Assembly (NCBI GenBank): GCA_021158245.1
Contig: JAGGVB010000058.1
Coordinates: 24,349-88,348 of the forward strand
Length of the DNA stretch: 64,000 nucleotides
Direction of reading: 5' to 3'
Source of the DNA: a bacterium
GTDB taxonomy: Bacteria > Zhuqueibacterota > QNDG01
In this document: positions 4,082 through 52,336 of the stretch, piece by piece
Position numbering within the stretch: position 1 is the stretch's first letter
How the letters are laid out: every line of letters begins with the position of its first letter
Position numbers and translations under genes: made by a program
The notes under the pieces: model-generated
What the model saw: the letters and a program-made list of their open reading frames with translations, nothing else
Database searches by the model: none
Told to the model about the DNA's origin: nothing

Positions 4082-4083
4082 AT

Positions 4084-4455: not shown

Positions 4456-4476
4456 ATATTATACGGGAAATAATGA

Positions 4477-6453: not shown

Positions 6454-6457
6454 TTGT

Positions 6458-7924
6458 ATGATAACAAAAGAGCTGAAAAATCTCTGTATGTCTGCTGATT
6501 TGCCGGCTGAATACGACGGTACAATTGAGATTACCGGTATAAGCTGTGATTCAAGAGAAGTTAAGCCGGGATATCTTTTTGTCGCTGTACGCGGTTTAAA
6601 AACCGACGGACATTTATTTATCAGGAAAGCTGTTGAAAAAGGCGCTGCTGCTGTAATCGCCGAAGAATTTATTGAAAATATTAATGCCCCTCTGGTTCTT
6701 TGTGAAAATTCACGCAGAGTGCTTTCTCTTCTTGCAAAGAATTTTTACGGAGACCCTGCAAACAGCATGAAGCTTATCGGGGTTACAGGCACTAACGGAA
6801 AGACAACTACAACTTATTTTCTTGAATCTCTCTTCAGTGAGGCGGGAGAGAGCGTGGGAGTAATAGGCACATTAAATTACAGGTGGCCGGGGCATGAGGA
6901 AAATGCAGTGCGAACCACTCCTGATGCAGTGGGCCTTTACAGATATCTATATGAAATGAAGAAAAGCGGTGTAACGCTTGCTGTTGTGGAAGTATCTTCC
7001 CATGCTCTTGAGCAGTACAGAGTATTCGGGCTCTCCTTTACTGAAGCTGTATTTACGAATATATCCCACGATCATCTTGATTACCATCACACTATTGATG
7101 CATATGCAGTGGCAAAGGCCAAACTTTTCTCAATGGTAGATTCTGACGGGAAAAGCATAATAAATTATGATGATAAATTTTTTATGGCTATGGAAGCAGC
7201 TTCTTCCGCGGATGTGGCAGGATACGGAAAATCTCCTGAAGCTAAGTATCAAATTTTATCTGTCACTCCGTTTGACAGAGGAACAAGGTTTTCTTTGAAA
7301 ACCCCGGACGGAATTATCAATTTAACAATTTTTGTCTGGGGTATGTTCAATGTTTACAATGCAGCAGCAGCTGCTGCTGCAGGGTTTGAGATGGGATTGT
7401 CAAAAGAAAATGTGATTAAAGGAATAGCTTCCCTTAAAAGAGTTCCCGGCAGAATGGAAGGTATAAGATCAGCCGACGGAAGATTCAGGGTAATCATTGA
7501 TTATGCCCACACTCCGGATGCTCTTCAGAAAGTACTTGAATGTGCCAGAGAATTCACAGATAGAAAGCTTATTGTGGTTTTCGGCTGCGGCGGTGACAGG
7601 GACAGGGAAAAGAGGCCTGAGATGGGAAGGGCGGCTTATGTTTTTGCTGATGAGGTCTTTATAACCACTGATAATCCGCGAACAGAGGACCCTGATGAAA
7701 TTATTAATGAAATTATTGCAGGAGTGGGTAAAAAAAACCCGCAGATACATGTGATTTCTGACAGGGAAGAGGCAATAAAACAGGCAGTTGCATCAGCCGG
7801 AGAGGGAGATACTGTTGTTATTGCAGGTAAGGGGCACGAATCTTATCAGATTATCGGAGCAAAAAAAATTCCTTTCAGCGACAGAAAAATCGCAGAAAAA
7901 TATTTAATGCAAGGGCATAAATAA
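6458..7924 (+). CDS. murE: UDP-MurNAc-L-Ala-D-Glu:meso-DAP ligase MurE
   Basis: GVTGTNGKTTT P-loop and a DNPR motif (TTDNPRTEDP) indicating meso-DAP specificity; Mur ligase domain order. Confidence 0.9.
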   Translation: MITKELKNLCMSADLPAEYDGTIEITGISCDSREVKPGYLFVAVRGLKTDGHLFIRKAVEKGAAAVIAEEFIENINAPLVLCENSRRVLSLLAKNFYGDPANSMKLIGVTGTNGKTTTTYFLESLFSEAGESVGVIGTLNYRWPGHEENAVRTTPDAVGLYRYLYEMKKSGVTLAVVEVSSHALEQYRVFGLSFTEAVFTNISHDHLDYHHTIDAYAVAKAKLFSMVDSDGKSIINYDDKFFMAMEAASSADVAGYGKSPEAKYQILSVTPFDRGTRFSLKTPDGIINLTIFVWGMFNVYNAAAAAAAGFEMGLSKENVIKGIASLKRVPGRMEGIRSADGRFRVIIDYAHTPDALQKVLECAREFTDRKLIVVFGCGGDRDREKRPEMGRAAYVFADEVFITTDNPRTEDPDEIINEIIAGVGKKNPQIHVISDREEAIKQAVASAGEGDTVVIAGKGHESYQIIGAKKIPFSDRKIAEKYLMQGHK

Positions 7925-7925
7925 A

Positions 7926-9311
7926 ATGAAATTAACCCTTGGCGAAACAGCAGACCTTTTTAATGCTGCTCTCTCTTCTAAAGAGAGAGTAAAAAATGTG
8001 GAGTCTGTAGAAACAGACTCAAACAAATGCGGAAAAGGGTCCCTGTTTTTTGCATTAAAGGGTGAACGATTTGACGGCCATGATTTTGTAAATAATGTGA
8101 GAGAAAATGGAGGAATCGGAGCTGTAGTTGAAAGAGATGTGAATATTTCGGAAGAAGGCGGGCCTTTTGCGCTTATATATGTTGATAATACGTTAAAAGC
8201 CCTTCAGTACCTTGCATCTTTTTACAGAAGCAAGTTCAATCTGCCGGTAGCAGGTATAACAGGATCCAACGGAAAGACAACAACAAAGGAGATGACAGCA
8301 TCTGTTCTTTCAAAAAAATACAAGGTTGTAAAAACCTCCGGTAATCTTAACAATCATATCGGTGTTCCCTTGACAATTCTGTCATGGAAGGATGAACCGG
8401 AGTTTGCAGTGCTTGAAATGGGCGCTAATCATATCGGGGAGATCAAGAATCTCTGCAGTATTGCAAAGCCGGAATATGGAGTAATCACAAATATAGGCAG
8501 AGGGCACATAGGTTTTTTCGGATCAATTGACAATATTTTTAAAGCTAAAAGAGAGCTGGCTGATTCTCTTCCGGAAGGGGGAACACTTTTCCTTAACGGT
8601 GATGATGAAAGATTAAACCGGATAAAGCTAAATAATGTGAAAATAATCAGATACGGATTCAGCAGCAAGTGTGATATTAAGGGGAGTAACCCTCGTATAA
8701 ATTCCGGAGGAAATGCAGTGATGGATTTTAACGGAGCTGTAGTTACACTTAATTTGCCCGGCCTCCACAATCTTTACAACGGCCTTGCAGCTGCTGCTGT
8801 GGGAATATATACAGGGGTTTCTCTGCGGGATATTCAGGAATCACTTGAAGAATTCAGAGCTGTTGATAAAAGAACAGATGTTGTATTTACAAATCCCTTT
8901 ATTCTTATAAATGATGCATACAATGCTAACCCTGATTCAATGGAAGCTGCATTTGCTGCTGCAAAAGAGATGGCGGGGCAGGGTACAAATCTCATCGCAG
9001 TGCTCGGAGATATGTTTGAGCTTGGGAAATACAGCAGGAAAGAGCATCAGTCTGCAGGTGAGAAACTGGGATTGTATGGATTTAATACACTCTTCTGTAT
9101 TGGCAGAGACATGGCCTACACAGCCGAGACAGCAGAAAAATCGGGCCTTATACATGTCAGCCATTATTTATCTCAAAAAGATCTGATCCGGAATTTAATT
9201 GGCTATATCTCTCCAAATGATGTTGTGCTTGTAAAGGGGAGCAGAGGAATGCAGATGGAGAAGGTTGTGGATGAACTTAAACAATTAAAATTTCAAAACG
9301 CGGGAGAGTAA
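7926..9311 (+). CDS. murF: UDP-MurNAc-tripeptide:D-Ala-D-Ala ligase MurF
   Basis: GITGSNGKTTTKEM P-loop, Mur ligase middle and C-terminal domains, immediately after murE. Confidence 0.85.
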   Translation: MKLTLGETADLFNAALSSKERVKNVESVETDSNKCGKGSLFFALKGERFDGHDFVNNVRENGGIGAVVERDVNISEEGGPFALIYVDNTLKALQYLASFYRSKFNLPVAGITGSNGKTTTKEMTASVLSKKYKVVKTSGNLNNHIGVPLTILSWKDEPEFAVLEMGANHIGEIKNLCSIAKPEYGVITNIGRGHIGFFGSIDNIFKAKRELADSLPEGGTLFLNGDDERLNRIKLNNVKIIRYGFSSKCDIKGSNPRINSGGNAVMDFNGAVVTLNLPGLHNLYNGLAAAAVGIYTGVSLRDIQESLEEFRAVDKRTDVVFTNPFILINDAYNANPDSMEAAFAAAKEMAGQGTNLIAVLGDMFELGKYSRKEHQSAGEKLGLYGFNTLFCIGRDMAYTAETAEKSGLIHVSHYLSQKDLIRNLIGYISPNDVVLVKGSRGMQMEKVVDELKQLKFQNAGE

Positions 9312-9314
9312 ATT

Positions 9315-10427
9315 ATGCTCTTTCATATTCTTTATCCTCTGAGGGACCAGTTTATAGGTTTTAACCTTCTCGGATATATAACTTTTCGTTCAGCTTCGGC
9401 AGCTGTGACAGCTTTGCTTGTAACTTTTATCATCGGGCCTTTTATTCTCAAGTGGCTGAGGAAGAAACAGTTTAAAGAGATAATCAGAACTGAAACCCCT
9501 GATTCTCACAGACAAAAAGCTGGTACTGTGTCTATGGGCGGTATCATAATTATTATTGCAGTGCTGGTACCTGTACTTCTTTTTGCAAAACTTAACAATA
9601 TGTATACCCAGTTGATGATTATATCTACTCTGTGGATGGGTGCAGTAGGCTTTATGGATGACTATCTTAAAGTCGTAAAGAAGATGCCCAAGGGCCTTAT
9701 AGGAAGGTACAAGCTTTTAGGCCAGGTATTACTTGGGCTCCTGGTTGGCCTTGTTGTAACTTTCTCGCAGGAATATTCCGGTGTTAAACTTGGCGGGCAA
9801 GTTGTTAATGTCAGCTGGTACACAAGTATTCCGTTTTTCAAGAATCTTCTGATTAATTTCGGGTGGTTTTATCTGCCTGTTGTAATCATTGTAATTACAG
9901 GCACTTCCAATGCAGTAAACCTGACAGACGGCCTTGACGGCCTTGCAATCGGACTTGTGGGTATAGCTGCTGCTGCCTGGGCAGGTATGAGCTATGTAAC
10001 AGGCCGTGTGGATTTTAGTGACTACCTCAATGTCCTGTATCTGAAGAATGCGGGTGAACTTACTATTTACTGTTCTGCCCTGATAGGAGCATCTTTGGGA
10101 TTCTTATGGTTTAACAGCCACCCTGCATCAGTATTTATGGGTGACACAGGAGCTCTTGCACTCGGAGGTGCAATGGGTACAATGGCTGTGATTCTGAAGA
10201 AAGAGCTGCTGCTTTTTATAGTAGGAGGTGTTTTTGTAGCAGAAAGCCTTTCAGTGATTCTGCAGGTTGCTTCTTTCCGTCTCAGGGGAAAACGTATTTT
10301 TAAAATGGCTCCAATTCATCACCACTTTGAACTTTTGGGGTGGCCTGAAGAGAAGATAGTTGTCCGATTCTGGATAATAGGAATTTTACTTGCACTATTA
10401 GGCTTGAGTACATTTAAAGTCAGGTAA
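9315..10427 (+). CDS. mraY: Phospho-N-acetylmuramoyl-pentapeptide transferase MraY
   Basis: Polytopic membrane protein with the NAVNLTDGLDGLA and HHHFEL motifs characteristic of MraY. Confidence 0.9.
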   Translation: MLFHILYPLRDQFIGFNLLGYITFRSASAAVTALLVTFIIGPFILKWLRKKQFKEIIRTETPDSHRQKAGTVSMGGIIIIIAVLVPVLLFAKLNNMYTQLMIISTLWMGAVGFMDDYLKVVKKMPKGLIGRYKLLGQVLLGLLVGLVVTFSQEYSGVKLGGQVVNVSWYTSIPFFKNLLINFGWFYLPVVIIVITGTSNAVNLTDGLDGLAIGLVGIAAAAWAGMSYVTGRVDFSDYLNVLYLKNAGELTIYCSALIGASLGFLWFNSHPASVFMGDTGALALGGAMGTMAVILKKELLLFIVGGVFVAESLSVILQVASFRLRGKRIFKMAPIHHHFELLGWPEEKIVVRFWIIGILLALLGLSTFKVR

Positions 10428-10432
10428 AGCCA

Positions 10433-11788
10433 ATGGTTATAGATGTTAAAAATAAACGTGTTACAATTCTCGGAGCCAGCAGAAGCGGCCTCGGTGCGGC
10501 GAAACTTATATCCGGGCATGGGGGACAGGTATTTGTAACGGAACTTGCTTCCGAAGATAAGATGCAGGCTGCTGTCTCTATGCTGAATAAGCTTGGCATT
10601 AAGTATGAGTTTGGAGGGCACAGCAGCAGTATTTATAATTGTGATTTTTGTGTGATAAGCCCGGGTATCTCAATATCAAGCCCGGTTGCGGAAAAATTCA
10701 GAAGTATGAATATCTCTCTATATAGTGAGCTGGAAGTTGCTTCATGGTTCTTTAAGGGGGAAATTATAGCTGTAACCGGATCAAATGGCAAGTCTACAGT
10801 TACTGCTTTGACAGGTGAAATTCTGAAGAGGGCAGGTATAGAGAGTATTACTGCCGGAAATATAGGCACTGCATTTTCAGAAGTTGCAGAGTCTGTAAGC
10901 AGCAGCGGATATGCAGTTGTCGAGGTAAGCAGTTTTCAGCTTGAGGCTGTATCTGATTTCAGGCCGCACATAGGCATTTTTCTGAATCTGACGGCTGATC
11001 ATCTTAACAGACACGGAACAATGGACACATACGGTAAACTGAAAGCAGGGCTTTTTAAAAATCAAACCGAAGAAGATATTGCTGTTTTTAACGGCGATGA
11101 TGAAGGTGTAAAAAATCTATTATCGAATGTTCGCGGTAAAAAGTATGAGTTCGGACTTGAACAGGCAGAAGGAAGAGCAGGGTATGTTAAAAATAACATC
11201 CTGACTGTAATCGGAAATTCCGCTGAATATCAGCTGGCGGATGTGTCTGAAATTGGCATAAAGGGTGTTCACAATGTATTAAACTGCCTTGCAGCTTCAA
11301 TTGCAGGTATCAATGCATCTGTCGATACTGTAATTATCTCTGAGGTGCTTAAAACTTTCAAAGGTCTGCCTCACAGAATGGAGTTTGTGGAGGAGATAGA
11401 CGGAGTAAAGTATTACAATGATTCCAAAGCAACAAATGTGGATTCTGTCCGGTATGCTTTGACAAGCTTCAAAGAGCCTGTAGTCCTGATTGCAGGGGGA
11501 AGAGACAAGGATTCGGATTTCTCCGTACTTGAAACTATGGTAAAGAAACATGTCAGAAAAATGCTTTTAATTGGCGAGGCTGCTGAAAAGATGGAGAAGG
11601 TTTTAGGGCCTGCTGTTGATACTGTGCTGGCGGAAAGCATGGAAGAAGCAGTATATCTTGCCAGTGTTTCTGCAGAAAAAGGTGATGCTGTACTGCTTTC
11701 ACCTGCATGTGCAAGTTTTGATATGTTTAGGAATTTTGAGGACAGAGGTGATAAATTTAAAGATTTGGTGAGGAAACTAAAAAAATGA
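10433..11788 (+). CDS. murD: UDP-MurNAc-L-Ala:D-Glu ligase MurD
   Basis: N-terminal Rossmann-like fold (ILGASRSGLGAAKLI), GSNGKST P-loop and C-terminal Mur ligase domain. Confidence 0.9.
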   Translation: MVIDVKNKRVTILGASRSGLGAAKLISGHGGQVFVTELASEDKMQAAVSMLNKLGIKYEFGGHSSSIYNCDFCVISPGISISSPVAEKFRSMNISLYSELEVASWFFKGEIIAVTGSNGKSTVTALTGEILKRAGIESITAGNIGTAFSEVAESVSSSGYAVVEVSSFQLEAVSDFRPHIGIFLNLTADHLNRHGTMDTYGKLKAGLFKNQTEEDIAVFNGDDEGVKNLLSNVRGKKYEFGLEQAEGRAGYVKNNILTVIGNSAEYQLADVSEIGIKGVHNVLNCLAASIAGINASVDTVIISEVLKTFKGLPHRMEFVEEIDGVKYYNDSKATNVDSVRYALTSFKEPVVLIAGGRDKDSDFSVLETMVKKHVRKMLLIGEAAEKMEKVLGPAVDTVLAESMEEAVYLASVSAEKGDAVLLSPACASFDMFRNFEDRGDKFKDLVRKLKK

Positions 11789-12909
11789 TGAATAGAAAAG
11801 GACAGCCCGACATCATCCTTTTATCAGTAACTGCTATACTTGTTTTGATAGGTATACTTGTAATTTACAGCGCAAGTTCATTCAGGGGGGCTGAAGATTA
11901 CAGTGACGCGTTTCTATTTATAAAGAAACATCTGATCAAAGTAGCACTTGCCTTGTTTTTTATGCTGATTTCATATAAAATTGATTACAGGTTCATAAAA
12001 TATATTACACCCTTCAGTCTGTTGGCTTTTATACTTCTCCTCTTTTTTGTCCTGTCCGGGCCGAAAATAAACGGCAGCAGACGGGCTATTTCTCTTATGG
12101 GAATGGGATTTCAACCCTCGGAGTTTATGAAACTTATATTGATTTGTTATATGGCTGCCCTTTTTTCCAAATCAAAAGGCAGAATTTCCGAGAACAGGGA
12201 GACACTTATAATTCATTATTTCATTTTTTTATCTATTGTTGTACTTGTTTTTATAGAACCTGATCTCGGAACAGCTCTGGTGATGTTTTTTATAGGATTA
12301 ACAATGCTGTTTATCGGCGGTGTACCCGGGAAGAAACTTGCTGTTATGGCAGCGGCACCTGTACCATTTGTGGCCTTGGGTTTTGCAATTTTTCCTTATC
12401 AGATGCAGAGATTAAGAGATTTCTGGAATTCTGTTTTTAACGGCGGGTCAATGAGTTATCAGGTGAAACAGTCCATTATAGGGCTTGCTCACGGCGGCCT
12501 TGCAGGAGTAGGTTACGGAGCGGGAAAACAAAAGCTCTTTTTTCTTCCGGAGCCGTTTTCTGATTTTGTGCTTGCAAGTTATGGCGAAGAGATGGGCTTT
12601 ATAGGTATGCTTTTTCTTTTTCTGCTTCTGGTAATTGTTCTCTGGAGAGGAATACACATAGCAGTGAATTCCCAGGACAGGTATGGTTTTCTTCTTGCAG
12701 GAGGAATTACAGCAATGATTCTTATTAATGCATTAATGAATGCAGGAGTCGTTGTAAATCTTCTGCCTACAACAGGGCTGCCCTTTCCGTTTTTAAGTTA
12801 CGGGGGGTCGTCACTTATAGTTCATATGATAGGTATAGGCATACTTCTAAATATTTCGAAAAGAAACTCACAGATGCAGGTCGGCTCTTTTGAAGGAATC
12901 AGCCTCTGA
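11785..12909 (+). CDS. ftsW: Peptidoglycan glycosyltransferase FtsW (SEDS family)
   Basis: 10-TM SEDS protein (PEPFSDFVLA...SYGGSSL motifs) between murD and murG, with a 4-nt overlap with murD. Confidence 0.85.
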   Translation: MMNRKGQPDIILLSVTAILVLIGILVIYSASSFRGAEDYSDAFLFIKKHLIKVALALFFMLISYKIDYRFIKYITPFSLLAFILLLFFVLSGPKINGSRRAISLMGMGFQPSEFMKLILICYMAALFSKSKGRISENRETLIIHYFIFLSIVVLVFIEPDLGTALVMFFIGLTMLFIGGVPGKKLAVMAAAPVPFVALGFAIFPYQMQRLRDFWNSVFNGGSMSYQVKQSIIGLAHGGLAGVGYGAGKQKLFFLPEPFSDFVLASYGEEMGFIGMLFLFLLLVIVLWRGIHIAVNSQDRYGFLLAGGITAMILINALMNAGVVVNLLPTTGLPFPFLSYGGSSLIVHMIGIGILLNISKRNSQMQVGSFEGISL

Positions 12910-14003
12910 TGAAAGAGTATAGAATAATAATTACAGGCGGAGGTACAGGAGGGCATCTCTATCCCGGGATTGCACTGGCGAATGAGTTTAAGAAAAGTAT
13001 TTCCTGCAAAATTCTTTTTGTCGGTACCAAAAAAGGAGTAGAGGTTTCTGTTGTACCTGCACATGGATATGATCTTAAATTTGTATGGATAAGCGGGATC
13101 AGCAGGGGGCGTGTAGTAAAAAATCTGCTTTTTCCTTTAAAAATGGCAGTATCATTTTTCCAGGCTTTTACAATAATTCGTAAATTCCATCCTGATGCAA
13201 TAATAGGCACAGGCGGGTATGCAAGCTGGCCGGTTCTCAGGGCAGGAGTTATAACAGGCGTTCCGGTATTTATTCAGGAACAGAATATCAGGCCCGGGTT
13301 AGTTACACGTGTTATGGCTCCAAAAGTAAATACTGTTTTTACAAGTTATATAGAGACCGAAAAATATCTTAAAGGGGAAACAAAAAAAGTAGTTGCAGGG
13401 AATCCTACAAGAAACGATTTGGATAAGGCAGACAGGCTGCAGGGCATAAAATTTTTTAATCTTAATAAAGATAAAAAAACAGTTTTTATTTTCGGAGGAA
13501 GCCAGGGGTCTCTTTTTATCAATAATTTAATGGAAAAAGCAGGCCCATTGCTTGCAATCGACCATAAATTACAGATTTTATGGGCAGCAGGCCCGAGATG
13601 GGCGGAGATGATTAAGGGAAAAGTGAATAATCCTGATATTAAGATTTATCCGTATATAGAAAACATGGCTGCAGCATACGGCGTAAGTGACCTGGTTGTG
13701 TGCCGCTCAGGCGCAACTACAATTGCCGAAATTACACGGCTCGGGATTCCTTGTCTTTTCATCCCTTTTGCTGCGGCAGCTAATAATCATCAGGAGAAGA
13801 ATGCGGAGATTCTATGCAAAGCCGGAGCTGGTGAAATGATCAGTGAAAAAGAGGCTGATTCTGAAACTATTATTCGAAAAATTGTATCGATTATAAGTAA
13901 TGAAATAAAATTGAAGAAAATGGCGGCAAATGCGCTGAGTTTCGGTAAACCCGATGCAGCACAATCTATTGTAAAAAGTATTCTTGAAGAGATTGAAATA
14001 TAA
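12909..14003 (+). CDS. murG: UDP-GlcNAc:lipid I GlcNAc transferase MurG
   Basis: N-terminal GGGTGGH motif, GT28 family, C-terminal GGSQGS region. Confidence 0.9.
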   Translation: MKEYRIIITGGGTGGHLYPGIALANEFKKSISCKILFVGTKKGVEVSVVPAHGYDLKFVWISGISRGRVVKNLLFPLKMAVSFFQAFTIIRKFHPDAIIGTGGYASWPVLRAGVITGVPVFIQEQNIRPGLVTRVMAPKVNTVFTSYIETEKYLKGETKKVVAGNPTRNDLDKADRLQGIKFFNLNKDKKTVFIFGGSQGSLFINNLMEKAGPLLAIDHKLQILWAAGPRWAEMIKGKVNNPDIKIYPYIENMAAAYGVSDLVVCRSGATTIAEITRLGIPCLFIPFAAAANNHQEKNAEILCKAGAGEMISEKEADSETIIRKIVSIISNEIKLKKMAANALSFGKPDAAQSIVKSILEEIEI

Positions 14004-14022
14004 CCTTAAAAAGGGGCTATTC

Positions 14023-14397
14023 ATGAAAAAACAGACAAAGATAGTTCTTGCTGAGAGTGAATCAATAATAGCTGAAGATGTAGCAAATCTTGTTAAAACG
14101 TGGGGTTTTGATCTTCTCGGACGTGCGACAACTCAGGATGAGCTGATGAAATTTGTAAAGGACTACAGGCCTGAAGTTATTATTTTTGATACTTTGCTGA
14201 GAGGTAAACGTGATACTTCTCTTATTGCACAGCAGATCTATAAAAAGTACGGCACATCTCTCGTTATTCTCGGGGATAGGACGGATTTGCAGGATGGAAA
14301 ATCGTTAAATAGAAAATTTTCATGGGTTGCAAAGCCGTTTAAAGAGGATGAATTGAAAAAGGCTGTAAAAAAAATGGCCTCAAAACGTGCTGCATAG
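14023..14397 (+). CDS. Stand-alone CheY-like receiver-fold protein with degenerate acidic pocket (pseudo-receiver?) inserted in the dcw cluster
   Basis: (beta-alpha)5 REC pattern: KIVLAESE (beta1, ESE replaces the usual DD), EVIIFDTLL (beta3, D at the phospho-acceptor position), SLVILGD (beta4) and AKPF (conserved Lys). I prefer the start at 14023 (ATG preceded by an AAAGGGG RBS) rather than the track start at 13984 inside murG. Confidence 0.5.
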   Translation: MKKQTKIVLAESESIIAEDVANLVKTWGFDLLGRATTQDELMKFVKDYRPEVIIFDTLLRGKRDTSLIAQQIYKKYGTSLVILGDRTDLQDGKSLNRKFSWVAKPFKEDELKKAVKKMASKRAA

Positions 14398-14430
14398 ATT
14401 AATCTTCCGGTTCATGCCGGATGGAGGTGT

Positions 14431-15813
14431 ATTATCGGTATCTATTTAGGGAGAACGAGATGCGTTCATTTTGTCGGAATAGGCGGAATAGGAATGAGCG
14501 GGATTGCAGAGGTTCTTCTGAATTTGGGATTTAAGGTAACCGGATCGGATCTTCAGTCCAGTTCGGTAACAGAACATCTTCATGAACTCGGTGCATCAAT
14601 ATACCAGGGGCACAGTGCCGGGAATATTTCAGATGCGGATGTTGTTGTTATATCATCTGCTGTACCTGAATCCAATGAAGAAGTTACAGCAGCACACAGG
14701 AAAAAGATACCTGTTATACGAAGGGCAGAGATGCTGGGCGAACTTATGCGCATGAAGCAGGGTGTGGCAGTAGCAGGCACTCACGGGAAAACAACTACTA
14801 CTTCAATGACAGGGTTGGTACTCCAACAGGGCGGTCTTGACCCCACACTTATTGTGGGAGGCAAACTGCGCAGCCTTGACACAAATGCAAAACTCGGAGA
14901 GGGTGAATATGTTGTTGTAGAGGCAGATGAGTATGACCACTCTTTTCTGCAGCTTACACCTGTTATTGCAGTAATAACAAATATCGAAAATGAGCATCTT
15001 GATTGTTACAAGGATCTGGATGATATCAAGCGGACATTTACTCAATTTGCAAATAAAGTCCCGTTTTACGGAGCAGTGATACTCTGCCTTGATGAAGAGC
15101 CTCTTCAGGAGATGGTTACAAAATTGGAACGCAGAATCGTAACTTACGGACTTTTTCCGCAGGCTGAGATAAGAGCGGAATCTGTCACTTTTTCAGAATC
15201 CGGCTCAGAGTACGATGCTTATTACAGAAATAAAAAACTTGGAAGAATAAAATTAAATTTACCCGGAATTTACAATGTGAAGAACTCTCTTGCAGCAATA
15301 GCTGTAGGTTTTGAGCTTGAGATTGATTTTAAGAACATAAAAAAGGCTCTTGAAGGGTTCACAGGCGTGCACAGACGCTTTGAAATCAAAGGCAAAGAGA
15401 AGAACGTCATTATTGTAGATGATTATGCACACCATCCAACAGAGATAAAAGCGAGCCTGAAAGGAGCAAAAGACGGTTATTCAAGGCGGATTATAACAAT
15501 ATTCCAGCCACATCTGTATTCCAGAACAAGAGATTTTTATGAGGACTTCGGTAAGTCATTTTTCAATACGGATATTTTGATTGTAACAGATATTTATCCT
15601 GCAAGGGAAAAACCAATTGAAGGAGTTTCGGGCCGGTTAATTGCAGATGCTGCAGAACTGCGCGGCCACAGAAATGTAAATTACATTCCTGATAAAAACA
15701 AAGTTGCTGATTTTGTCGGGGACATAATAAAACCAGGCGATATGGTGATCACAATGGGTGCAGGCGATATATGGAAGATTGGTGAGGAAATATTAAAGAG
15801 GCTGAAATCCTGA
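14431..15813 (+). CDS. murC: UDP-MurNAc:L-alanine ligase MurC (5' end anomalous, no canonical in-frame start)
   Basis: Conserved MurC N-terminal motif RCVHFVGIGGIGMSGIAE is encoded at 14458-14511 in frame with the rest of the gene, upstream of the first in-frame ATG (14494). No ATG/GTG/TTG occurs in frame between the upstream stop (14395-14397) and this motif. An ATG at 14460 with a good RBS (GGGAG 14449-14453) is in the +1 frame. Confidence 0.8.
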   Translation: MIGIYLGRTRCVHFVGIGGIGMSGIAEVLLNLGFKVTGSDLQSSSVTEHLHELGASIYQGHSAGNISDADVVVISSAVPESNEEVTAAHRKKIPVIRRAEMLGELMRMKQGVAVAGTHGKTTTTSMTGLVLQQGGLDPTLIVGGKLRSLDTNAKLGEGEYVVVEADEYDHSFLQLTPVIAVITNIENEHLDCYKDLDDIKRTFTQFANKVPFYGAVILCLDEEPLQEMVTKLERRIVTYGLFPQAEIRAESVTFSESGSEYDAYYRNKKLGRIKLNLPGIYNVKNSLAAIAVGFELEIDFKNIKKALEGFTGVHRRFEIKGKEKNVIIVDDYAHHPTEIKASLKGAKDGYSRRIITIFQPHLYSRTRDFYEDFGKSFFNTDILIVTDIYPAREKPIEGVSGRLIADAAELRGHRNVNYIPDKNKVADFVGDIIKPGDMVITMGAGDIWKIGEEILKRLKS

Positions 15814-16727
15814 TGAATGAAGGGACCAGAAATCTGAAGAGATTTAAACAGGTTTTCAAAGGGCATGTCATGCTAAATGAGATGCTCAGCTCTCATACTT
15901 CCTTTAAAATCGGGGGGCCTGCAGATTTGTATGTTTTTCCAAAAGATATGGAGGATCTTACAAATCTTGTAACTTATTGCCAGCAGGAGAATTATCCTGT
16001 ATTTGTAATAGGGAACGGTACAAATCTTCTTGTAAGTGATGATGGTTTCAGGGGGGTAGTCATAGACCTTTCCCAGACTTTTCGGCATATTAAAGTAAAA
16101 GGTACGGAATTGACTGTGGGAGCCGGAGTTACACTTTCAGGGCTTCTGTCATTCTGCACTATCAGAGGATTTTCCGGTCTGGAGAAGCTTTCAGGTATAC
16201 CAGGCCAGATAGGGGGCTGTATTTCGCTCAATGCAGGGGCTTTTGGAAGAGAAATCGGCGATGTTGTGGAAGCAGTCAGAATTCTGGACAAGTTCAATAC
16301 CCTTGAAAAGATATCCGGAGATGAAATTAATTTCGGATACAGGCATACGGGCCTGGAGAAAAAGAGTGTTATTGTGGAAGCTGTATTCAACTTAACAGAT
16401 GGAAATCCGAAGGAGATGGAAGCAGTTCAGCGTTCCTATCTTCAAAAGAGAAAAAAAACGCAGCCGCTTTCCCTTCCTTCAGCAGGATCAGTTTTTAAGA
16501 GGCCCAAAGGAGATTTTGCAGGCAGGCTTGTAGAAGACGCCGGGTGTAAAGGGCTTAGAATCGGTGATGCAATGGTTTCCAAAAAACACGCAAATTTTAT
16601 TGTCAACGTAGGAAAAGCAAGAGCTGTGGATGTTGTAAGACTTATTGATGAAGTACGGGAAAGAGTTTTAAAACGGTTTGGTGCCACTCTGGAACCGGAA
16701 ATTCATTTTTTGGGATTTGATTTATGA
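15813..16727 (+). CDS. murB: UDP-N-acetylenolpyruvoylglucosamine reductase MurB
   Basis: FAD-binding domain (FKIGGPADL...VIGNGTNLL) and C-terminal MurB domain (SAGSVFKRP); TGATG overlap with murC. Confidence 0.85.
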   Translation: MNEGTRNLKRFKQVFKGHVMLNEMLSSHTSFKIGGPADLYVFPKDMEDLTNLVTYCQQENYPVFVIGNGTNLLVSDDGFRGVVIDLSQTFRHIKVKGTELTVGAGVTLSGLLSFCTIRGFSGLEKLSGIPGQIGGCISLNAGAFGREIGDVVEAVRILDKFNTLEKISGDEINFGYRHTGLEKKSVIVEAVFNLTDGNPKEMEAVQRSYLQKRKKTQPLSLPSAGSVFKRPKGDFAGRLVEDAGCKGLRIGDAMVSKKHANFIVNVGKARAVDVVRLIDEVRERVLKRFGATLEPEIHFLGFDL

Positions 16728-17497
16728 GCAGGAGTATAATAAAAAAAGATGAGATTCTTGCCAGCCTTGTAAAATTGATATATACAGGCGCTGCACTCTG
16801 TATTATTTACTTTGCAGGCAGAGGTTATTTGCACTGGCTTGATCAGTCTCCTTTATTTAAAATAGAATCAATAAAAATTACAGGATCCAACTATCTTTCC
16901 GATGAAGAAATTTTGAGCCTCAGCGGCCTTGATAAAGCAAAGAAGATATGGGATGCAAGGTTAGAAGATGCGGTTAATTCAATAAAAACATATCCTTTTA
17001 TAGAAGATGTCTCTGTGATCAGAAGGCTTCCTGACAAGATTGAAATAAAGGTAAAAGAGAAGGAACCTATTGCGCTTCTGAATTTTCAGGGGGATCTCTA
17101 TTCAATAGACAGACACGGACTTGTGCTGCCTACAATTCCCGGAAAGATGTATAATCTTCCTGTAATAAGCGGTAATTTTAAAGGGGGGCTGAAGGTCGGC
17201 ATAGAGATAGGAGGCGGCATTGCAAAACAGGGGTTATCAGTAATTACAGCAATAATCAGGCAGAAGCCGTCTCTTTACACCAATATTTCAGAAGTTGTTT
17301 TAAAATCAGGGGGCCAGGTAGTGCTTTTTACACGAAACAGGGGAATACCAGTAAAGATGGGAAGAAAAGAAATATCAAGAAAGATTACATATCTTGATGC
17401 AATCCTTGGCGAATTAAAAAGAGACCGCTCTCTGTCAAAAGTAAATTACATTGACCTGAGGTTCAGAGGACAGGTCGTTGTGGGAATGAGGGTATAA
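16724..17497 (+). CDS. ftsQ: Cell division protein FtsQ/DivIB (POTRA domain)
   Basis: N-terminal TM then a POTRA-like region (IESIKITGSNYLSDEEIL); position between murB and ftsA. Confidence 0.7.
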   Translation: MSRSIIKKDEILASLVKLIYTGAALCIIYFAGRGYLHWLDQSPLFKIESIKITGSNYLSDEEILSLSGLDKAKKIWDARLEDAVNSIKTYPFIEDVSVIRRLPDKIEIKVKEKEPIALLNFQGDLYSIDRHGLVLPTIPGKMYNLPVISGNFKGGLKVGIEIGGGIAKQGLSVITAIIRQKPSLYTNISEVVLKSGGQVVLFTRNRGIPVKMGRKEISRKITYLDAILGELKRDRSLSKVNYIDLRFRGQVVVGMRV

Positions 17498-17500
17498 ACT

Positions 17501-18766
17501 ATGAATCCTTCGAGAGATATATTACGAGGCGACACCAGAAAAATAGTAACAGGTGTTGATATAGGTACCAGTAAAATTGGTGTTGTAATCGGAGAGTTAA
17601 ATGAGGATGGATTAATAAATATTCTCGGAGTAGGTACCAGCCCGTCACAGGGGCTGCGCCAGGGAGTTGTGATTAACCTTGATTTGGCAGTCCAGTCAAT
17701 AAGCAAGGCAGTGCATGAAGCCAAGCTTACAGCGGGTGTTGACGTAAAAGAGGTTATAGTCGGCATTGCCGGCGATCACATACGAAGCGTAAACAGCAGG
17801 GGTGTTGTAGGCGTATCCAGATCAGGGCATGAAATTACACAGCAGGATGTCAACAGAGTTATAGATGCAGCAAAGGCAATTGCACTCCCGATTGACAGAG
17901 AAGTGCTGCATGTACTCCCGCAGGAATTTATTGTAGATAATCAGGGAGGTATTAAAAATCCTGTAGGTATCTCCGGAGTAAGGCTTGAGGCGGAAATACA
18001 TATTGTGACAGGTGCTGTCACATCTGCGCAGAATATAGTACGCAGTGTAACAAGAAGCGGGCTTAAGGTTGCAGGTATTGTTCTGGAGCCGCTTGCTTCA
18101 AGCAGCGCTGTTCTTGATGCAAGTGAAAAAGATCTTGGCGTAGCGTTGATTGATATGGGCGGAGGTACAACAGATGTGGCTCTGTTCTATGGCGGCGCAA
18201 TAAGGCATACTGCTGTAATAGGCCTGGGAGGGCAGATTGTTACAAATGATATTGCACTGGGGCTGCGGACACCCCTTGAACAGGCTGAAGTAATAAAGAG
18301 AAAGTTCGGATATGCAACTGAAAGCATAATAAATAAAGAAGATATGTTTATAGTCCCGGGTATTGGAAACAGGGAATCAAGAGAAGTTCCGATATCTATG
18401 CTTACATCAATAATACAGCCGAGAATGGAGGAGATTTTCGGGCTTGCTGCTAAGGAAATTAAGAGATCGGATTACGGAGATGTCCTTGGTGCGGGTGTGG
18501 TTCTTACAGGAGGAGGATCACTTCTTAAAGGAGCCGAAGTTTTGGCAGAAGAAGTTTTTAGCCTGCCTGCAACTATTGGAATACCAAAAGGCTTTTCCGG
18601 CCTCTATGCAGCAGCTTCAAGCCCTATTTTTGCCACAGGAGTAGGCCTTGTATTTTTCGGGGCAGGACGGGGAGAAGAGGAAGTAAAACACCTTGGTGCG
18701 GATGAAGAGGGGCTTTTTACAAGAATTTATAAATGGATGAAAAAATTCGCAGAAGATTTTATTTAA
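17501..18766 (+). CDS. ftsA: Cell division protein FtsA
   Basis: Actin-like ATPase fold (VGVDIGTSKIGVVIGE, DMGGGTTDVALF). Confidence 0.9.
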   Translation: MNPSRDILRGDTRKIVTGVDIGTSKIGVVIGELNEDGLINILGVGTSPSQGLRQGVVINLDLAVQSISKAVHEAKLTAGVDVKEVIVGIAGDHIRSVNSRGVVGVSRSGHEITQQDVNRVIDAAKAIALPIDREVLHVLPQEFIVDNQGGIKNPVGISGVRLEAEIHIVTGAVTSAQNIVRSVTRSGLKVAGIVLEPLASSSAVLDASEKDLGVALIDMGGGTTDVALFYGGAIRHTAVIGLGGQIVTNDIALGLRTPLEQAEVIKRKFGYATESIINKEDMFIVPGIGNRESREVPISMLTSIIQPRMEEIFGLAAKEIKRSDYGDVLGAGVVLTGGGSLLKGAEVLAEEVFSLPATIGIPKGFSGLYAAASSPIFATGVGLVFFGAGRGEEEVKHLGADEEGLFTRIYKWMKKFAEDFI

Positions 18767-18822
18767 TGCCGGTTTTTTAAAAAGGGAATTAATCACAGTT
18801 TGTACATATCAAGGAGGCCATA

Positions 18823-20016
18823 ATGAGTAACGGAAAAACGCTGGCGTTTGATTTTGCAGATGATGACAATGTCGTTGCAAAAATCAAAGTAATAGGTGTA
18901 GGAGGCGCAGGAGGAAATGCTATAAACCGTATGATTGAGGACGGTCTTACGGGTGTGGAGTTTATAGCAATTAATACTGATAAGCAGGCTCTTGACAACA
19001 ACAAAGCTCCTATGCGCATCCAAATAGGCAAGAATCTCACAAAAGGGCTTGGTGCGGGAGGCAATCCTGAGATGGGCCGAAAGGGGATTGAAGAGAACAA
19101 GGATGCAGTAATTGAGGCTATCTCGTCAACTGACATGGTTTTTATAACCTGCGGTATGGGCGGCGGTACAGGGACCGGAGCCGCACCTGTTGTTGCGGAA
19201 ATAGCAAAAGACCTTGGCGCACTTACTGTTGGAGTTGTTACAAAACCTTTTATGTTTGAAGGGAAAAAGAGGCAGGAGAGAGCTGCTCAGGGTATACAGA
19301 TGCTGAAAGAGAATGTTGATACTCTGATTGTTGTGCCTAACCAGAAACTGATAAGCCTTGTACCGAAACATACTCCTCTCGAACAGGCTTTCAGAGTAGC
19401 CGATGAGATTCTGCTTCATGCGACAAAGGGAATTTCTGATGTTATAAATGTTCCCGGATTGATAAACCTGGATTTTGCAGATGTCAGAACAATAATGAAT
19501 CAGATGGGTGATGCCATAATGGGTTCTTCGGTAGCAAGCGGAGAGAACAGAGCAAAAGAAGCAGCGGAGCAGGCAATATCAAGCCCTCTTATTGATGATG
19601 TATCAATCAGCGGGGCACAGGGAGTGCTTGTTAATATTACAGGCGGAAGCGATTTGAGCCTAAATGATATCAATGAAGCTACATCTGTAATTTATAATGC
19701 AGCAGGTGCTGACGCAAATATTATTTTCGGTGCAGTGATAGATAAAAGCATGAAAGAAGAAGTAAGGGTAACAGTTGTTGCAACCGGATTTCAGAAAAGC
19801 CGTTCAAAAGGCGGATTCAATTTTGGAAACGGACACGAAAAGAGAGATTTGGGCCTTTCGGAAAGTGAAGGAGACATACCGTTAATTAAAAAGTATTCGG
19901 AGGATCCCATTGTAAAAGCCATGGGAGGAGATTCCTTTGGTAATGACGGAGGCTTTTCTTTTGTCAGTAAGGATGATCTTGGAATTCCTGCTTTCATCAG
20001 AAGGAAGTTAGACTGA
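18823..20016 (+). CDS. ftsZ: Cell division GTPase FtsZ
   Basis: Tubulin signature [13 protein letters not shown] and N-terminal [18 protein letters not shown]. Confidence 0.95.
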
Positions 20017-20022
20017 TTTTAT

Positions 20023-21585
20023 ATGACTTTTCGTCAGAATAGTTCAGGATGGACGAGAGAACGTATAATCAGCTTTCACAGCCGGCTTTTAAATCAGGAA
20101 CTCGGGAAAAAAGAGCTAAAAAAAAGTGCTCTTGTGAAGGCAGTAGTCGTATTCCCCAATACCTACGGTGTAGGAATGGCGAATATGGGATTTCATACGG
20201 TTTATCGTTTTTTCAATGAACATCCGGGAATGTCCTGCGAGCGGGCTTTTTTTGATAAAATGTACGAAAGAAAGCAGGTACTGTCGCTTGAATCATCAAA
20301 GCCTCTGAATAATTTTGATCTGATTGGTTTTTCAGTTTCATTTGAGCTGGATATTATTAATATTATACGAATTCTTGTTCTTTCAAAAATTGCGCTTCTC
20401 TCTTCAAATCGTACAAAGCATGATCCTGTGATAATTGCAGGCGGCCCTGTTACAGGATTAAATCCCTCTCCATTACTGCCCTTTGTGGACGGCCTCCTTA
20501 TGGGCGACGGAGAGGAGGTTTTCAGGCTTATCGGCGATGTAATGACTGAAGCTAAAGAAAACCATCTATCACGTGCAGATATCTTGGAGACTCTGAGTAT
20601 GCTGCCGGGGATGTATGTTGAAGGCAGAACAAAGAAGGTTACGCGTCAGGTTCTTTTAAATCTTGACAAGTATCCGACTTATACACCGATAGTGAGTTCA
20701 AGAAGTCATTTTAAAAATATGTTTGTTACCGAATTAAGCAGAGGATGCCCTAGAAAATGTAAATTCTGTGCGGCAAGAGAGATATACAAACCTTTCAGGT
20801 ACAGGAGTCATGAAACTATTATAGGATCCATTAAAGAGTTTAATCCGGGTGCAAAACGGATAGGGCTTGAAGGGTCTGCTGTATCGGATTATCCGAAATT
20901 AACGGACTTATGCGAAAAGATCCTTGATATGGGATATGATATTTCATTTTCGTCTATCCGAGCTGATAAGATAACAGAGGCAATGCAGGATGTAGTAAAA
21001 CGAAGCAGGCTGCGTACTTTTACAATAGCTCCGGAAGCGGGTTCCGAGCGACTGCGATATTTAATTGGGAAAAAGATAGCTGACAGTGAAATACTAAAAG
21101 GAGTTGAAAAACTTGCGTATACGGAAGTCCGAATATTAAAACTTTATTTTATGATAGGCCTTCCTGAAGAAAAAGATGATGATGCAGAGGCAATTGCAGA
21201 TTTGACAAACAGGATTCAAAAAATATTTTCAGGGTCAAATAAGGGGAAACAAGTGCATTTAAGCATTAACACATTTATTCCAAAGCCTTTTACTCCTTTT
21301 GAATCCGAACCTGTTGCAAGAGAGAGAGATTTGGTAAGAAGGCGCAATATTGTTAAAAAAAGGATTGATAAAAAAATACATGTATCTGCAAAAAGTTCAA
21401 AAAGGGATATACTGCAATCAGTACTTGCTTTGGGAAACAGAGAAACCGGTTTGGCATTAATGGATTCAATACAACAAGGTATTACATGGAAAGAGGCCTT
21501 AATAAACAGAGATATTTTTCTTGATGAAATGATATTTACAGGAAGAGATAAAAGTGCAATAAAGGAGTGGGACTTTATTGATTGA
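20023..21585 (+). CDS. B12-binding-like / radical SAM domain protein, function unknown
   Basis: CxxxCxxC cluster (RGCPRKCKFCAA) about 240 aa from the N-terminus, preceded by a Rossmann-like B12-binding-type region. It lies 7 bp after the ftsZ stop on the same strand. Confidence 0.6.
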   Translation: MTFRQNSSGWTRERIISFHSRLLNQELGKKELKKSALVKAVVVFPNTYGVGMANMGFHTVYRFFNEHPGMSCERAFFDKMYERKQVLSLESSKPLNNFDLIGFSVSFELDIINIIRILVLSKIALLSSNRTKHDPVIIAGGPVTGLNPSPLLPFVDGLLMGDGEEVFRLIGDVMTEAKENHLSRADILETLSMLPGMYVEGRTKKVTRQVLLNLDKYPTYTPIVSSRSHFKNMFVTELSRGCPRKCKFCAAREIYKPFRYRSHETIIGSIKEFNPGAKRIGLEGSAVSDYPKLTDLCEKILDMGYDISFSSIRADKITEAMQDVVKRSRLRTFTIAPEAGSERLRYLIGKKIADSEILKGVEKLAYTEVRILKLYFMIGLPEEKDDDAEAIADLTNRIQKIFSGSNKGKQVHLSINTFIPKPFTPFESEPVARERDLVRRRNIVKKRIDKKIHVSAKSSKRDILQSVLALGNRETGLALMDSIQQGITWKEALINRDIFLDEMIFTGRDKSAIKEWDFID

Positions 21586-21952
21586 AAAGATGAGGAGAGG
21601 AGCCGTGATAAAATCAAGTATTTCAAGGAATTCAATGCCCGATATTTTTCTTTACAAAGGACAGATGGTAATTCCGGATTATGAATTGGCAAGTTATTAT
21701 GGCGTTAATACTGATACATTGCGTGATGTTTTTGCAAAGCATGAAAGTTTGTTTCCGGGAAGTATGGTTTTTTCAGTTAAAGGTTCGGAAAAGAAGAAGA
21801 AAAGTACCACGAACAAGGCATCGGGAACATTACTTTTTACAGAGCAGTCTGCAACACTTATTGCAGGGTTGATTAAAGATACTGAAGCACTTAAAGCTAA
21901 TATGAGACTTTTGAGGCTGTTCAGGCTTCTGGATTATATTGTTGCTACGTAA
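21578..21952 (+). CDS. ORF6N (KilA-N-like) domain protein, putative DNA-binding
   Basis: YKGQMVIPDYELASYYGVNTDTLRDVFAKHESLFPGSMVFSV matches the ORF6N domain pattern (RGQ.VMLD.DLA.LYGV....L...V.RN..RFP..F.F.L). It overlaps the radical-SAM gene end by 8 nt. Confidence 0.45.
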   Translation: MIEKMRRGAVIKSSISRNSMPDIFLYKGQMVIPDYELASYYGVNTDTLRDVFAKHESLFPGSMVFSVKGSEKKKKSTTNKASGTLLFTEQSATLIAGLIKDTEALKANMRLLRLFRLLDYIVAT

Positions 21953-44150: not shown

Positions 44151-44174
44151 CGGACATGGGAGATTGATTAATAT

Positions 44175-46713: not shown

Positions 46714-46751
46714 AAATATATTAATAAAATAAACTTTGCACGGAGTACACT

Positions 46752-48356: not shown

Positions 48357-48392
48357 AGATGTTTTTATTAATCATAACGTGCAGGTGAAATT

Positions 48393-48818: not shown

Positions 48819-48856
48819 AAAAAAATATAATTGCTAAAGGCTGGTAATTAGGAGAA

Positions 48857-51199: not shown

Positions 51200-51214
51200 G
51201 GAAGATAAAAACCT

Positions 51215-52327: not shown

Positions 52328-52336
52328 GAAAATATT

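Follow-up and report, generated by a model that had tools for sequence, protein, structure and literature searches.

Gene order in the dcw cluster is among the most conserved in bacteria, and in the bacterial window studied here (the whole 64,000-nucleotide stretch of DNA that was analyzed) a small gene lies within that cluster, between murG and murC. What this gene encodes, and what its product might do at this position, are the questions raised by the locus. The initial annotation had described a degenerate CheY-like receiver (called REC below, gene and protein) that could bring a signalling input to septal peptidoglycan synthesis. The ORF map and Pfam matches, which agree with the Pfam labels of these genes in orthologous loci, delimited a complete dcw cluster in the order mraZ-rsmH-ftsL-like ORF-ftsI-murE-murF-mraY-murD-ftsW-murG-REC-murC-murB-ftsQ-ftsA-ftsZ. 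All dcw genes in the window were co-oriented and tightly packed; ftsI carried a PASTA domain, and MurC was identified by its Mur_ligase, Mur_ligase_M, and Mur_ligase_C matches. The cluster and the features around REC are as follows.

2608-20016, forward strand: complete dcw cluster
12909-14003, forward strand: murG, 364 aa, stop codon TAA at 14001-14003, with matches to Glyco_transf_28 (E 1.5e-30) and Glyco_tran_28_C (E 3.5e-40)
14010-14016, forward strand: Shine-Dalgarno-like AAAGGGG, read from the sequence, 6 nt ahead of the REC start codon
14023-14397, forward strand: REC, encoding a single-domain pseudo-receiver of 124 aa, with TAG as stop codon (ORF map, Pfam, NCBIfam, phmmer, AF2)
14398-14433, forward strand: REC-murC spacer, with a strong Shine-Dalgarno sequence (GGAGG, 14423-14427) preceded by a small hairpin, TCCGG...CCGGA, at about 14406-14421
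14434-15813, forward strand: murC with revised 5' end, likely start ATC 14434, alternatively ATT 14431

The longest open reading frame (13984-14397, TTG start, 137 aa) overlaps the end of murG at its 5' end. The 124-aa protein of the initial annotation is real, starting at ATG 14023 behind its own Shine-Dalgarno sequence and stopping at TAG 14395-14397, and its location between murG and murC in the same orientation was confirmed by the ORF map and by the Pfam matches of both flanking genes. The spacing is 19 nt from murG to REC and about 36 nt from REC to the likely murC start. REC thus has the features of a dcw member, namely the same strand, tight spacing, and a junction kept in 12 lineages. 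No promoter-like or terminator-like signal stood out at the REC junction, nor did any Rfam signal, so that co-transcription of murG, REC, and murC is plausible. The dcw genes other than REC stop with TAA or TGA and give no hint of recoding. Read-through of the TAG codon, or a REC-MurC fusion, was considered and rejected: the two frames coincide in the window and in lineage L005, with the TAG between them, and L001 has a TAA stop and a murC frame other than that of REC.

A Pfam search aligned REC end to end with Response_reg (PF00072; profile positions 1-111 of 111, E 5e-5), although its 23.8 bits fall short of the gathering score (30.2). Most members of the REC family carry a precomputed PF00072 match. 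The NCBIfam PhyR-type receiver model matched at E 3.5e-11 over profile positions 136-250 of 258 (43 bits vs a 240-bit cut-off). An exhaustive phmmer search with REC returned 5546 matches at E < 1e-3, which, among the matches listed, were of receiver length; the best match outside the family had an E value of 5e-16. On these sequence comparisons, homology to receivers can be regarded as secure despite the window protein falling below the Pfam gathering score. The AF2 model showed the (beta-alpha)5 fold of the receiver superfamily with five parallel strands, at a pLDDT of 78.9 with 4 sequences and of 88.8 (pTM 0.85) with 26 sequences. Profile alignment, phmmer, and predicted fold all agree with the description of a degenerate CheY-like receiver. 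Response_reg is the sole Pfam match, and the protein ends a few residues past alpha5 in a basic tail (...KKMASKRAA); a Lys-rich C-terminus with a final Ala-Ala occurs in about half of the family.

The degeneracy is located in the active site, whose key codons are listed here.

14053-14055, forward strand: E11 (DD1)
14056-14058, forward strand: S12 (DD2 lost)
14188-14190, forward strand: D56 (phospho-acceptor kept)
14272-14274, forward strand: G84 (Thr lost)
14275-14277, forward strand: D85 (T+1)
14332-14334, forward strand: K104 (Lys kept)

The initial annotation had read ESE in place of the DD pair. Ser12 does replace DD2, but Glu11 occupies DD1 and is still acidic, and Glu13 is the DD+1 residue, so only the second acidic residue has been lost. 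Retention of the phospho-acceptor Asp (D56) and the conserved Lys (K104) was correctly described; a further loss had been missed, the conserved Thr/Ser being replaced by Gly84, with Asp (D85) at T+1. The canonical Asp at the end of beta3 and Lys at the end of beta5 are therefore present in REC, whereas the intact DD pair and the Thr/Ser at the end of beta4 are not. In the same alignment, the REC domains of the CheA-REC protein and of the hybrid kinase encoded in the window both read ED...D...T...K (n=2 canonical receivers).

Across 29 family sequences, DD2 was Ser in 24, Asn in three, Lys in one, and Arg in one, and was never acidic. Lys at DD2 renders E. coli CheY unphosphorylatable, and one family member has Lys there. 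The T position was occupied by Ile (15), Gly (5), Ser (5), Ala (2), or Val (2) and by Thr in none; T+1 was Asp in 23/29, T+2 was Trp in 21/29, and D+4 was Pro in 0/29. The other half of the site was strongly conserved: D56 in 27/29, K104 in 29/29, E11 in 28/29 (the remaining one having Asp), and E13 in 28/29. Nine positions are invariant in the family; W27-G28 in the alpha1-beta2 loop is identical in 29/29 sequences, as are the Lys and Pro of the motif that reads K104-P105-F106 in the window protein. I15, D19, and L111 also count among the family-invariant residues. Two members (P0052 and P0170) have Gly at the phospho-acceptor position, and P0052 still lies immediately upstream of murC. These two would qualify as aspartate-less receivers (ALR), and the window protein, having D56, does not. 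REC fits the definition of a pseudo-receiver, since DD2 and T are missing (PMC12632262). Asp and Lys are retained in roughly 65% of pseudo-receivers at large (PMC12632262), and the conservation of D56, K104, E11, and E13 in the REC family is far above that figure; near-invariance of these four residues indicates that the pocket clearly matters. In receivers, the T+1 residue must be small if the phosphorylation site is to be accessible (PMC12632262). The pocket could still take a phosphoryl group with an unusual metal geometry, and the conserved Asp at T+1 might even substitute for the DD2 metal ligand. The never-acidic DD2, the absence of Thr, the bulky Asp at T+1, and the Asp-less subclade together favor reading the protein as a pseudo-receiver.

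The family is discrete, comprising about 29 sequence clusters. A profile search placed 26 clusters at E <= 1.7e-30, with the next match at 3.8e-17; this first match beyond the gap (P0177) belongs to a stress-gene neighborhood outside dcw. The order murG-REC-murC was found in the window and in P0003, P0004, P0005, P0008, P0011, P0021, P0102, P0162, and P0172; P0057 and P0052 are on short contigs where only REC-murC is visible. REC was directly upstream of murC in 12/12 clusters with readable context, and murG was upstream wherever the contig reached. REC was thus neither absent nor variable among the relatives found, being kept at the junction in every one, down to 27-30% identity. In 12/12 unrelated dcw loci, which served as negative controls from distant phyla (23-39% identity, FtsQ-seeded metagenome scan), murG was followed directly by murC. 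A genome-contig scan found one GTDB representative matching the close-clade patterns, KSB1 bacterium B43_G9.

Compared with an 81%-identical ortholog (dS 0.9), REC gave a dN/dS of 0.13 (range 0.11-0.19), vs 0.12 for murG and 0.09 for ftsQ; REC is under purifying selection. Its protein divergence roughly tracks that of MurG and FtsQ, and it stays at the junction even between lineages that share only 65% identity in FtsZ. The GC content of REC (38%) is like that of the window (39%) and of the neighboring genes and so does not indicate a recent import; together with the divergence tracking MurG and FtsQ, this rules out a recent horizontal insertion. In the history that we envisage, REC would have derived from ordinary two-component receivers, losing DD2 (a direct Mg2+ ligand) and the phosphoryl-contacting Thr/Ser. 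Fixation at the murG-murC junction may date to the ancestor shared by a group of KSB1-type lineages, and REC would have stayed at that site ever since as an ordinary gene of the dcw operon.

Comparison with known receivers places the protein more closely. Like CheY it is a single-domain REC protein, and the label "CheY-like" is correct at the fold level; identity to a CheY sequence is 18%, with CheY D13 replaced by Ser and T87 by Gly, and REC lies outside the che cluster of the window (43-57 kb). DivK, a single-domain response regulator of cell division in Caulobacter, has a canonical active site that DivJ and PleC phosphorylate. It is encoded outside the dcw cluster and occurs in Alphaproteobacteria only; at 12% identity to REC it is a functional analog at most and not an ortholog. 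The best sequence and structure matches were receivers of the PhyR, ANTAR (Rv1626/PdtaR, EutV), and WalR/YycF types, with Rv1626, RT-PhyR, and YycF at the top in phmmer and Foldseek. These share the alpha1 signature "AE-E-IIA-D" with REC, but they have full DD/D/T/K sets, and REC has no sigma-like (PhyR), ANTAR, or winged-helix domain that would place it in the PhyR or ANTAR type. The similarity reflects subfamily ancestry and not shared function. Lineage-specific dcw accessory genes offer a further parallel, being, like REC, non-core and conserved within the dcw cluster of a single lineage. A part in division or wall synthesis is suggested for them mainly by where they lie; none is known to encode a REC-fold protein, and the murG-murC junction is normally uninterrupted elsewhere, unlike in the REC lineages. 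A literature search combining dcw with receiver, CheY-like, or pseudo-receiver found no description of such a context, and a paper on the dcw cluster mentions no inserted genes.

Pseudo-receivers and atypical response regulators such as FrzS, NblR, BldM/WhiI, ChxR, and GlnR resemble REC in combining a computed REC fold with the loss of one or more of the five catalytic residues (PMC12632262). Loss of DD2 is their commonest defect, shared by REC, which has also lost T, and a T+1 residue that is not small and a D+4 residue that is not Pro are further shared traits (PMC12632262). In most characterized pseudo-receivers the receiver is joined to an output domain, DNA-binding or of another kind, whereas REC is a 124-aa stand-alone protein; it also differs in its near-invariant Asp and Lys, its discrete family, and its fixed position inside the dcw operon. 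Phosphorylation-independence is the expected behavior of the class (PMC12632262). Pseudo-receivers are common, and a 2025 review calls the mode of their activation and inactivation a mystery.

With about even confidence, we propose that REC is a lineage-specific, stand-alone pseudo-receiver that works independently of phosphorylation, by protein contact with MurC, MurG, or the divisome. In this role it would regulate the divisome or the cytoplasmic steps of peptidoglycan-precursor synthesis, or act there as an adaptor or scaffold. Gene order makes its invariant neighbors MurC and MurG the prime candidate partners. The E11/E13/D56/K104 cluster would form a structural charge network or a binding pocket, and the Lys-rich Ala-Ala C-terminus could serve membrane contact, partner contact, or proteolytic turnover. 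The putative link to septal peptidoglycan synthesis comes from gene context only. Such context carries weight here: a non-core gene occupies one dcw junction across deeply diverged lineages, and because dcw order is so highly conserved, its retention there points strongly to an accessory factor of wall synthesis or division that has yet to be described. A fixed genomic partner set (MurG, MurC) also narrows the hunt for binding partners to a few candidates. Because the host organisms have not been cultured, any test would have to use a heterologous system, and the immediate impact is limited accordingly.

At the other extreme, a decaying, functionless passenger, or no real gene at all, could be read from the Pfam score below threshold and the degenerate active site. 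This is effectively refuted by a dN/dS equal to that of murG and ftsQ, by its presence in 12 or more lineages, among which identity falls to 27% and nine positions never vary, and by the confident AF2 fold; the gene also has its own Shine-Dalgarno sequence and compact spacing. A working response regulator of the DivK/CheY type is unlikely. An orphan histidine kinase or Hpt protein encoded elsewhere would phosphorylate D56, and the phospho-form would bind the divisome or a Mur protein, so that division would respond to an environmental or cell-cycle signal. The genome has many kinases and Hpt domains, the window itself encoding a hybrid kinase (4 REC domains + Hpt) and a CheA-REC protein, so that an orphan phosphodonor is possible. 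No kinase or Hpt gene was linked to REC in any of the 12 readable contexts, however, and the family pattern weighs against phosphorylation, with DD2 never acidic, Thr in none of the 29 (Ser in five), mostly bulky Asp and Trp at T+1 and T+2, and Asp absent from two members, the readable one of which still adjoins murC. The two-component "signalling input" of the initial annotation accordingly found no support.

A ligand-sensing pseudo-receiver would bind a nucleotide, a UDP-sugar or peptidoglycan precursor, c-di-GMP, or a quinone in the acidic/Lys pocket or at the Trp27-Gly28 loop and feed back on MurC or MurG. Ligand regulation is documented for pseudo-receivers, including ShkA (c-di-GMP), CikA and KaiA (quinones, alpha1-beta2 region), and JadR1 and RedZ (pathway end products) (PMC12632262), and the invariant loop, the nearly invariant pocket, and the location inside a biosynthetic operon are in keeping with it. 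No ligand-binding motif was identified in REC, however, and canonical relatives, P0017 among them, have W-G in this loop too, so that it may be inherited rather than adaptive; we find this reading very doubtful. There is only a slim chance that REC acts through a canonical regulator or kinase elsewhere, by heterodimerization or competition for a kinase, with the dcw site giving growth-linked expression only. Such models are established (WhiI-BldM) or proposed (the CmrT-CmrR pair) for pseudo-receivers (PMC12632262), and the genome is rich in REC domains. Against this, the REC stop overlaps the murC ATG in three lineages of one clade (L011, L052, L054), which suggests co-translation with MurC, and this overlap, with the junction kept across lineages of such divergent FtsZ, argues for a function tied to the neighboring genes and not to a distant regulator. 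The same translational coupling is consistent with stoichiometric binding of MurC/MurG, and the Lys-rich ...AA C-terminus resembles a ClpX-type degron. An extension of the contact-dependent pseudo-receiver reading, itself quite unlikely, would make REC a dedicated subunit of the peptidoglycan-precursor machinery or divisome, stoichiometric with MurC and/or MurG and adjusted in abundance by C-terminal turnover; with a weak ATH start of murC, this would amount to lineage-specific post-transcriptional control of the first committed Mur ligase step.

The start of murC was revised during this analysis. ATG 14494, chosen by the ORF and gene callers, falls inside the GIGGIGMSG nucleotide-binding loop, and there is no in-frame ATG, GTG, or TTG between the stop at 14397 and 14494. 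The peptide LGRTRxVHFVGIGG upstream of ATG 14494 is conserved with synonymous changes, and in 13 unrelated murC genes an ATG stands at the corresponding site. A frameshift or sequencing error that would make ATG 14460 the murC start was rejected: the +1-frame ATG is absent from L005, L001, and L006, where the Shine-Dalgarno sequence and ATH are kept. The spacer showed no regulatory RNA, attenuator, or terminator (fold z -0.84 vs shuffled sequences, no Rfam match above chance), and one terminator-like match was located inside the murC coding sequence. The Shine-Dalgarno sequence followed by ATH is conserved in at least seven lineages with REC, in which no ATG, GTG, or TTG start is present, and murC apparently initiates at ATH there. 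The revision is of practical use: in these genomes, MurC as annotated automatically appears to lack about 20 residues, and murC would add a rare case in which an ATH start is conserved.

REC, the 124-aa CheY-like pseudo-receiver gene, belongs to a family of stand-alone pseudo-receivers that is set apart by its constant position within the dcw operon; pseudo-receivers themselves are known and common. The observation of a conserved, dcw-embedded REC gene is solid, and its host is uncultured. The features of the locus are:

2608-20016, + strand: dcw cluster, complete and co-oriented (mraZ, rsmH, ftsL-sized ORF, ftsI, murE, murF, mraY, murD, ftsW, murG, REC, murC, murB, ftsQ, ftsA, ftsZ)
12909-14003, + strand: murG, upstream of REC, strong Pfam matches
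14010-14016, + strand: Shine-Dalgarno-like AAAGGGG, read from the sequence
14023-14397, + strand: REC gene, 124 aa, stop TAG 14395-14397
14423-14427, + strand: murC Shine-Dalgarno GGAGG, then TGT ATT ATC
downstream of REC, + strand: murC, strong Pfam matches

The longest listed ORF at the locus (13984-14397, 137 aa) has a TTG start and overlaps the end of murG. ATG 14023, 6 nt downstream of AAAGGGG, is the biologically sensible start and yields the 124-aa protein of the initial annotation. The identical protein has a deposited record, 'hypothetical protein J7K93_03210 [bacterium]', and a Guaymas Basin 'candidate division KSB1 bacterium' encodes a relative with 51% identity. Promoter-like and terminator-like sites within 12800-15000 were no commoner than in shuffled sequence, no credible Rfam match was found around the murG-REC-murC junction, and the REC-murC spacer RNA folded no better than shuffles; a transcript shared with mur and fts genes would be the simplest reading. 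The spacer contains a small hairpin (TCCGG-N6-CCGGA, 14406-14421, before the murC Shine-Dalgarno), with no T-run after it, which is retained with a wobble change in locus L005 and absent in L001.

The REC protein is a receiver by fold and homology. Pfam Response_reg aligned over its full length (1-111 of 111) at 23.8 bits, below the 30.2-bit gathering score, and the NCBIfam PhyR-type receiver model matched at E 3.5e-11. Searching the PDB with phmmer returned 55 chains at E ≤ 1, receiver domains almost without exception, and phmmer run exhaustively over 1.84 billion representatives gave 5546 matches at E < 1e-3, the best outside the family at 5e-16. AF2 predicted a textbook (beta-alpha)5 topology, with pLDDT 78.9 using 4 sequences and 88.8 (pTM 0.85) using 26 family sequences; the best Foldseek matches were the YycF/WalR, Rv1626, PhyR, and ArcA receivers (TM about 0.8). 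Homology and predicted structure agree with the receiver fold pattern noticed earlier.

A word-indexed search turned up no more than four close clusters, and small proteins at greater distance, sharing these degenerate motifs, came from the exhaustive search. An 11-member profile retrieved 26 clusters, all at E ≤ 1.7e-30, and the next match stood sharply apart at 3.8e-17. Members of the window clade are 81% (P0003), 51% (P0004), and 45% (P0005) identical to REC. Genomic context was inspected for every member where readable, including the distant P0011, P0008, P0057, P0021, P0102, P0162, P0172, and P0052. This synteny survey, proposed in the initial annotation to see whether the gene is absent or variable in relatives, found its position kept: REC lay directly 5' of murC in 12 of 12 contexts, with murG upstream wherever the contig reaches. 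P0177, the 3.8e-17 match, has stress genes around it (PhyR-like sigma domain, CsbD) and is not in dcw. As a control, murG was followed directly by murC in all 12 unrelated dcw loci spanning both genes, bearing out the claim that an extra gene here is unusual. Lineages carrying REC are related, yet deeply diverged, with identity to the window falling from 94% to 65% for FtsZ and from 77% to 46% for MurG. Literature searches returned no description of a stand-alone pseudo-receiver family tied to one place in the dcw cluster. In a distant lineage (L014, GCA_963986685.1), an additional 107-aa ORF (9681-10004) lies between murG and REC and overlaps the REC start; its product is hydrophobic, seems to cross the membrane several times, and is listed without a Pfam match.

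Against the 81%-identical ortholog (dS 0.9, unsaturated), dN/dS was 0.13 for REC, 0.12 for murG, 0.09 for ftsQ, and 0.05 for murC. A relic gene is ruled out by the REC value, near that of murG, and recent import by a GC content of 38% matching the window's 39%; by these sequence measures REC is a maintained gene.

Active-site residues were placed by HMMER alignment to solved receivers and by alignment with two canonical receivers of the window and CheY.

Table. Catalytic receiver positions and their offsets in the REC protein and in the family (number of sequences, n = 29).
DD1: E11, kept, acidic; family E in 28, D in 1
DD2: S12, lost; family S in 24, N in 3, K in 1, R in 1
DD+1: family E in 28, D in 1
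D (phospho-acceptor): D56, kept; family D in 27, G in 2
T: G84, lost; family I in 15, G in 5, S in 5, A in 2, V in 2
T+1: D85, bulky, not Ala/Gly; family D in 23, N in 3, A in 2, H in 1
T+2: family W in 21, others in 8
K: K104, kept; family K in 29
K+1: family P in 29
K+2: family F in 28, Y in 1

The alignments upheld retention of the phospho-acceptor Asp and conserved Lys. The description 'ESE instead of DD' was slightly off: the second acidic residue, a direct metal ligand, is replaced, and the first is still acidic. The loss of the conserved Thr had been overlooked. A receiver without any one of the five catalytic residues counts as a pseudo-receiver; the defect seen most often, in about 80% of pseudo-receivers, is loss of DD2, and a small T+1 residue is usually required for phosphorylation-site access (PMC12632262, a 2025 review). 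Lacking DD2 and T in these alignments, the REC protein is a pseudo-receiver under this definition. Positions I15, D19, W27, G28, P50, and L111 are also invariant in the 29 sequences, and Pro at D+4 occurs in none. The two Asp-less members (P0052 and P0170) form a subclade with Gly at the phospho-acceptor site ('VIIGSD'); its only readable context (P0052, L055 61-438) has REC immediately 5' of murC. A Lys/Arg-rich tail followed by Ala-Ala (e.g. SKRAA, KKKKAA) ends 15 of the 29 members, in two separate clades. This ending resembles C-terminal ClpX recognition signals, which include the ssrA-type LAA and the AA end of CtrA, and a tail for binding the membrane or a partner would be an equally good reading. 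The window REC tail region is 14359-14394.

Single-domain receivers can act only via contacts with other macromolecules. There is perhaps an even chance, judged from these patterns, that the family works by phosphorylation-independent protein contacts. Control by Asp phosphorylation is argued against by the universal loss of the metal ligand, the loss of Thr, the bulky T+1 and T+2 residues, the viable Asp-less members that keep their genomic position, and the finding of no kinase or Hpt gene linked to REC in any inspected locus. A genuine phospho-switch is unlikely. Weighing the other way, conservation of D56, K104, E11, and E13 is much stronger than is usual for pseudo-receivers, where D and K are conserved in about 65% (PMC12632262). 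Because of this conservation the pocket evidently has some role, which may be that of a structural charge cluster, as reported in the title of a GlnR study cited in PMC12632262, of a ligand site, or of a seat of residual phosphochemistry. Ligand sensing has precedents among pseudo-receivers in ShkA, CikA, KaiA, and JadR1 (PMC12632262) and is improbable here; REC-REC heterodimers have a similarly slim chance. If the family does work by phosphorylation-independent contacts, MurC or MurG, or a Mur/divisome assembly, would be the candidate partner, since REC invariantly adjoins murG and murC; the overlap of the REC stop codon with the murC ATG in three lineages (L011, L052, and L054) is an added pointer.

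In the window, the murC frame is open from 14398, and no canonical start (ATG, GTG, or TTG) occurs in 14398-14494 upstream of the nucleotide-binding loop (GIGGIGMSG), inside which ATG 14494 lies. Different lineages keep the peptide LGRTRxVHFVGIGG 5' of Met 14494 while its codons change synonymously, which shows that it is translated. ATC 14434 likely marks the murC start, to judge from the layout shared by L005, L001, L006, L012, L014, and L055: a conserved GGAGG Shine-Dalgarno, 3 nt, one variable codon, and ATC, ATT, or ATA (ATH) 6 nt from the Shine-Dalgarno, with no canonical start anywhere in the interval. At least 7 lineages share this layout, and that of L010 is similar. The ATH codon lies 12 codons 5' of the Phe in FVGIGG, and 13 of 13 unrelated murC genes have ATG 11-13 codons 5' of this motif. 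The murC of the other REC clade, with the stop overlap, starts with ATG. Confirmed AUU starts in E. coli are only infC and pcnB, and initiation there from AUA, AUC, and AUU reaches roughly 1-2% of that from AUG (bioRxiv 10.1101/063800). Gene callers shorten MurC to 439-440 aa in the ATH genomes, with about 20 residues lost.

Directly 3' of ftsZ is a radical SAM gene with a Radical_SAM_N2 N-terminal domain (20023-21585), usually followed by an ORF6N-domain gene (21578-21952 in the window); the ftsZ pairing is kept in L001, L005, L006, and L014 and absent in L052 and L054. About 30 kb from dcw, a chemosensory-type cluster (43776-57347), of which two aligned receivers have canonical active sites, includes by Pfam:

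44669-46138: CheR-TPR fusion
46752-48356: MCP
48857-51199: CheA-CheW-REC protein with Hpt
52337-56224: hybrid kinase of 1295 aa (2 GAF, HisKA/HATPase, 4 REC, Hpt)

The dcw-encoded FtsI/PBP (4477-6453) has a C-terminal PASTA domain (E 4e-7), and a LapA-domain gene at 648-1004 suggests that the host has an outer membrane.
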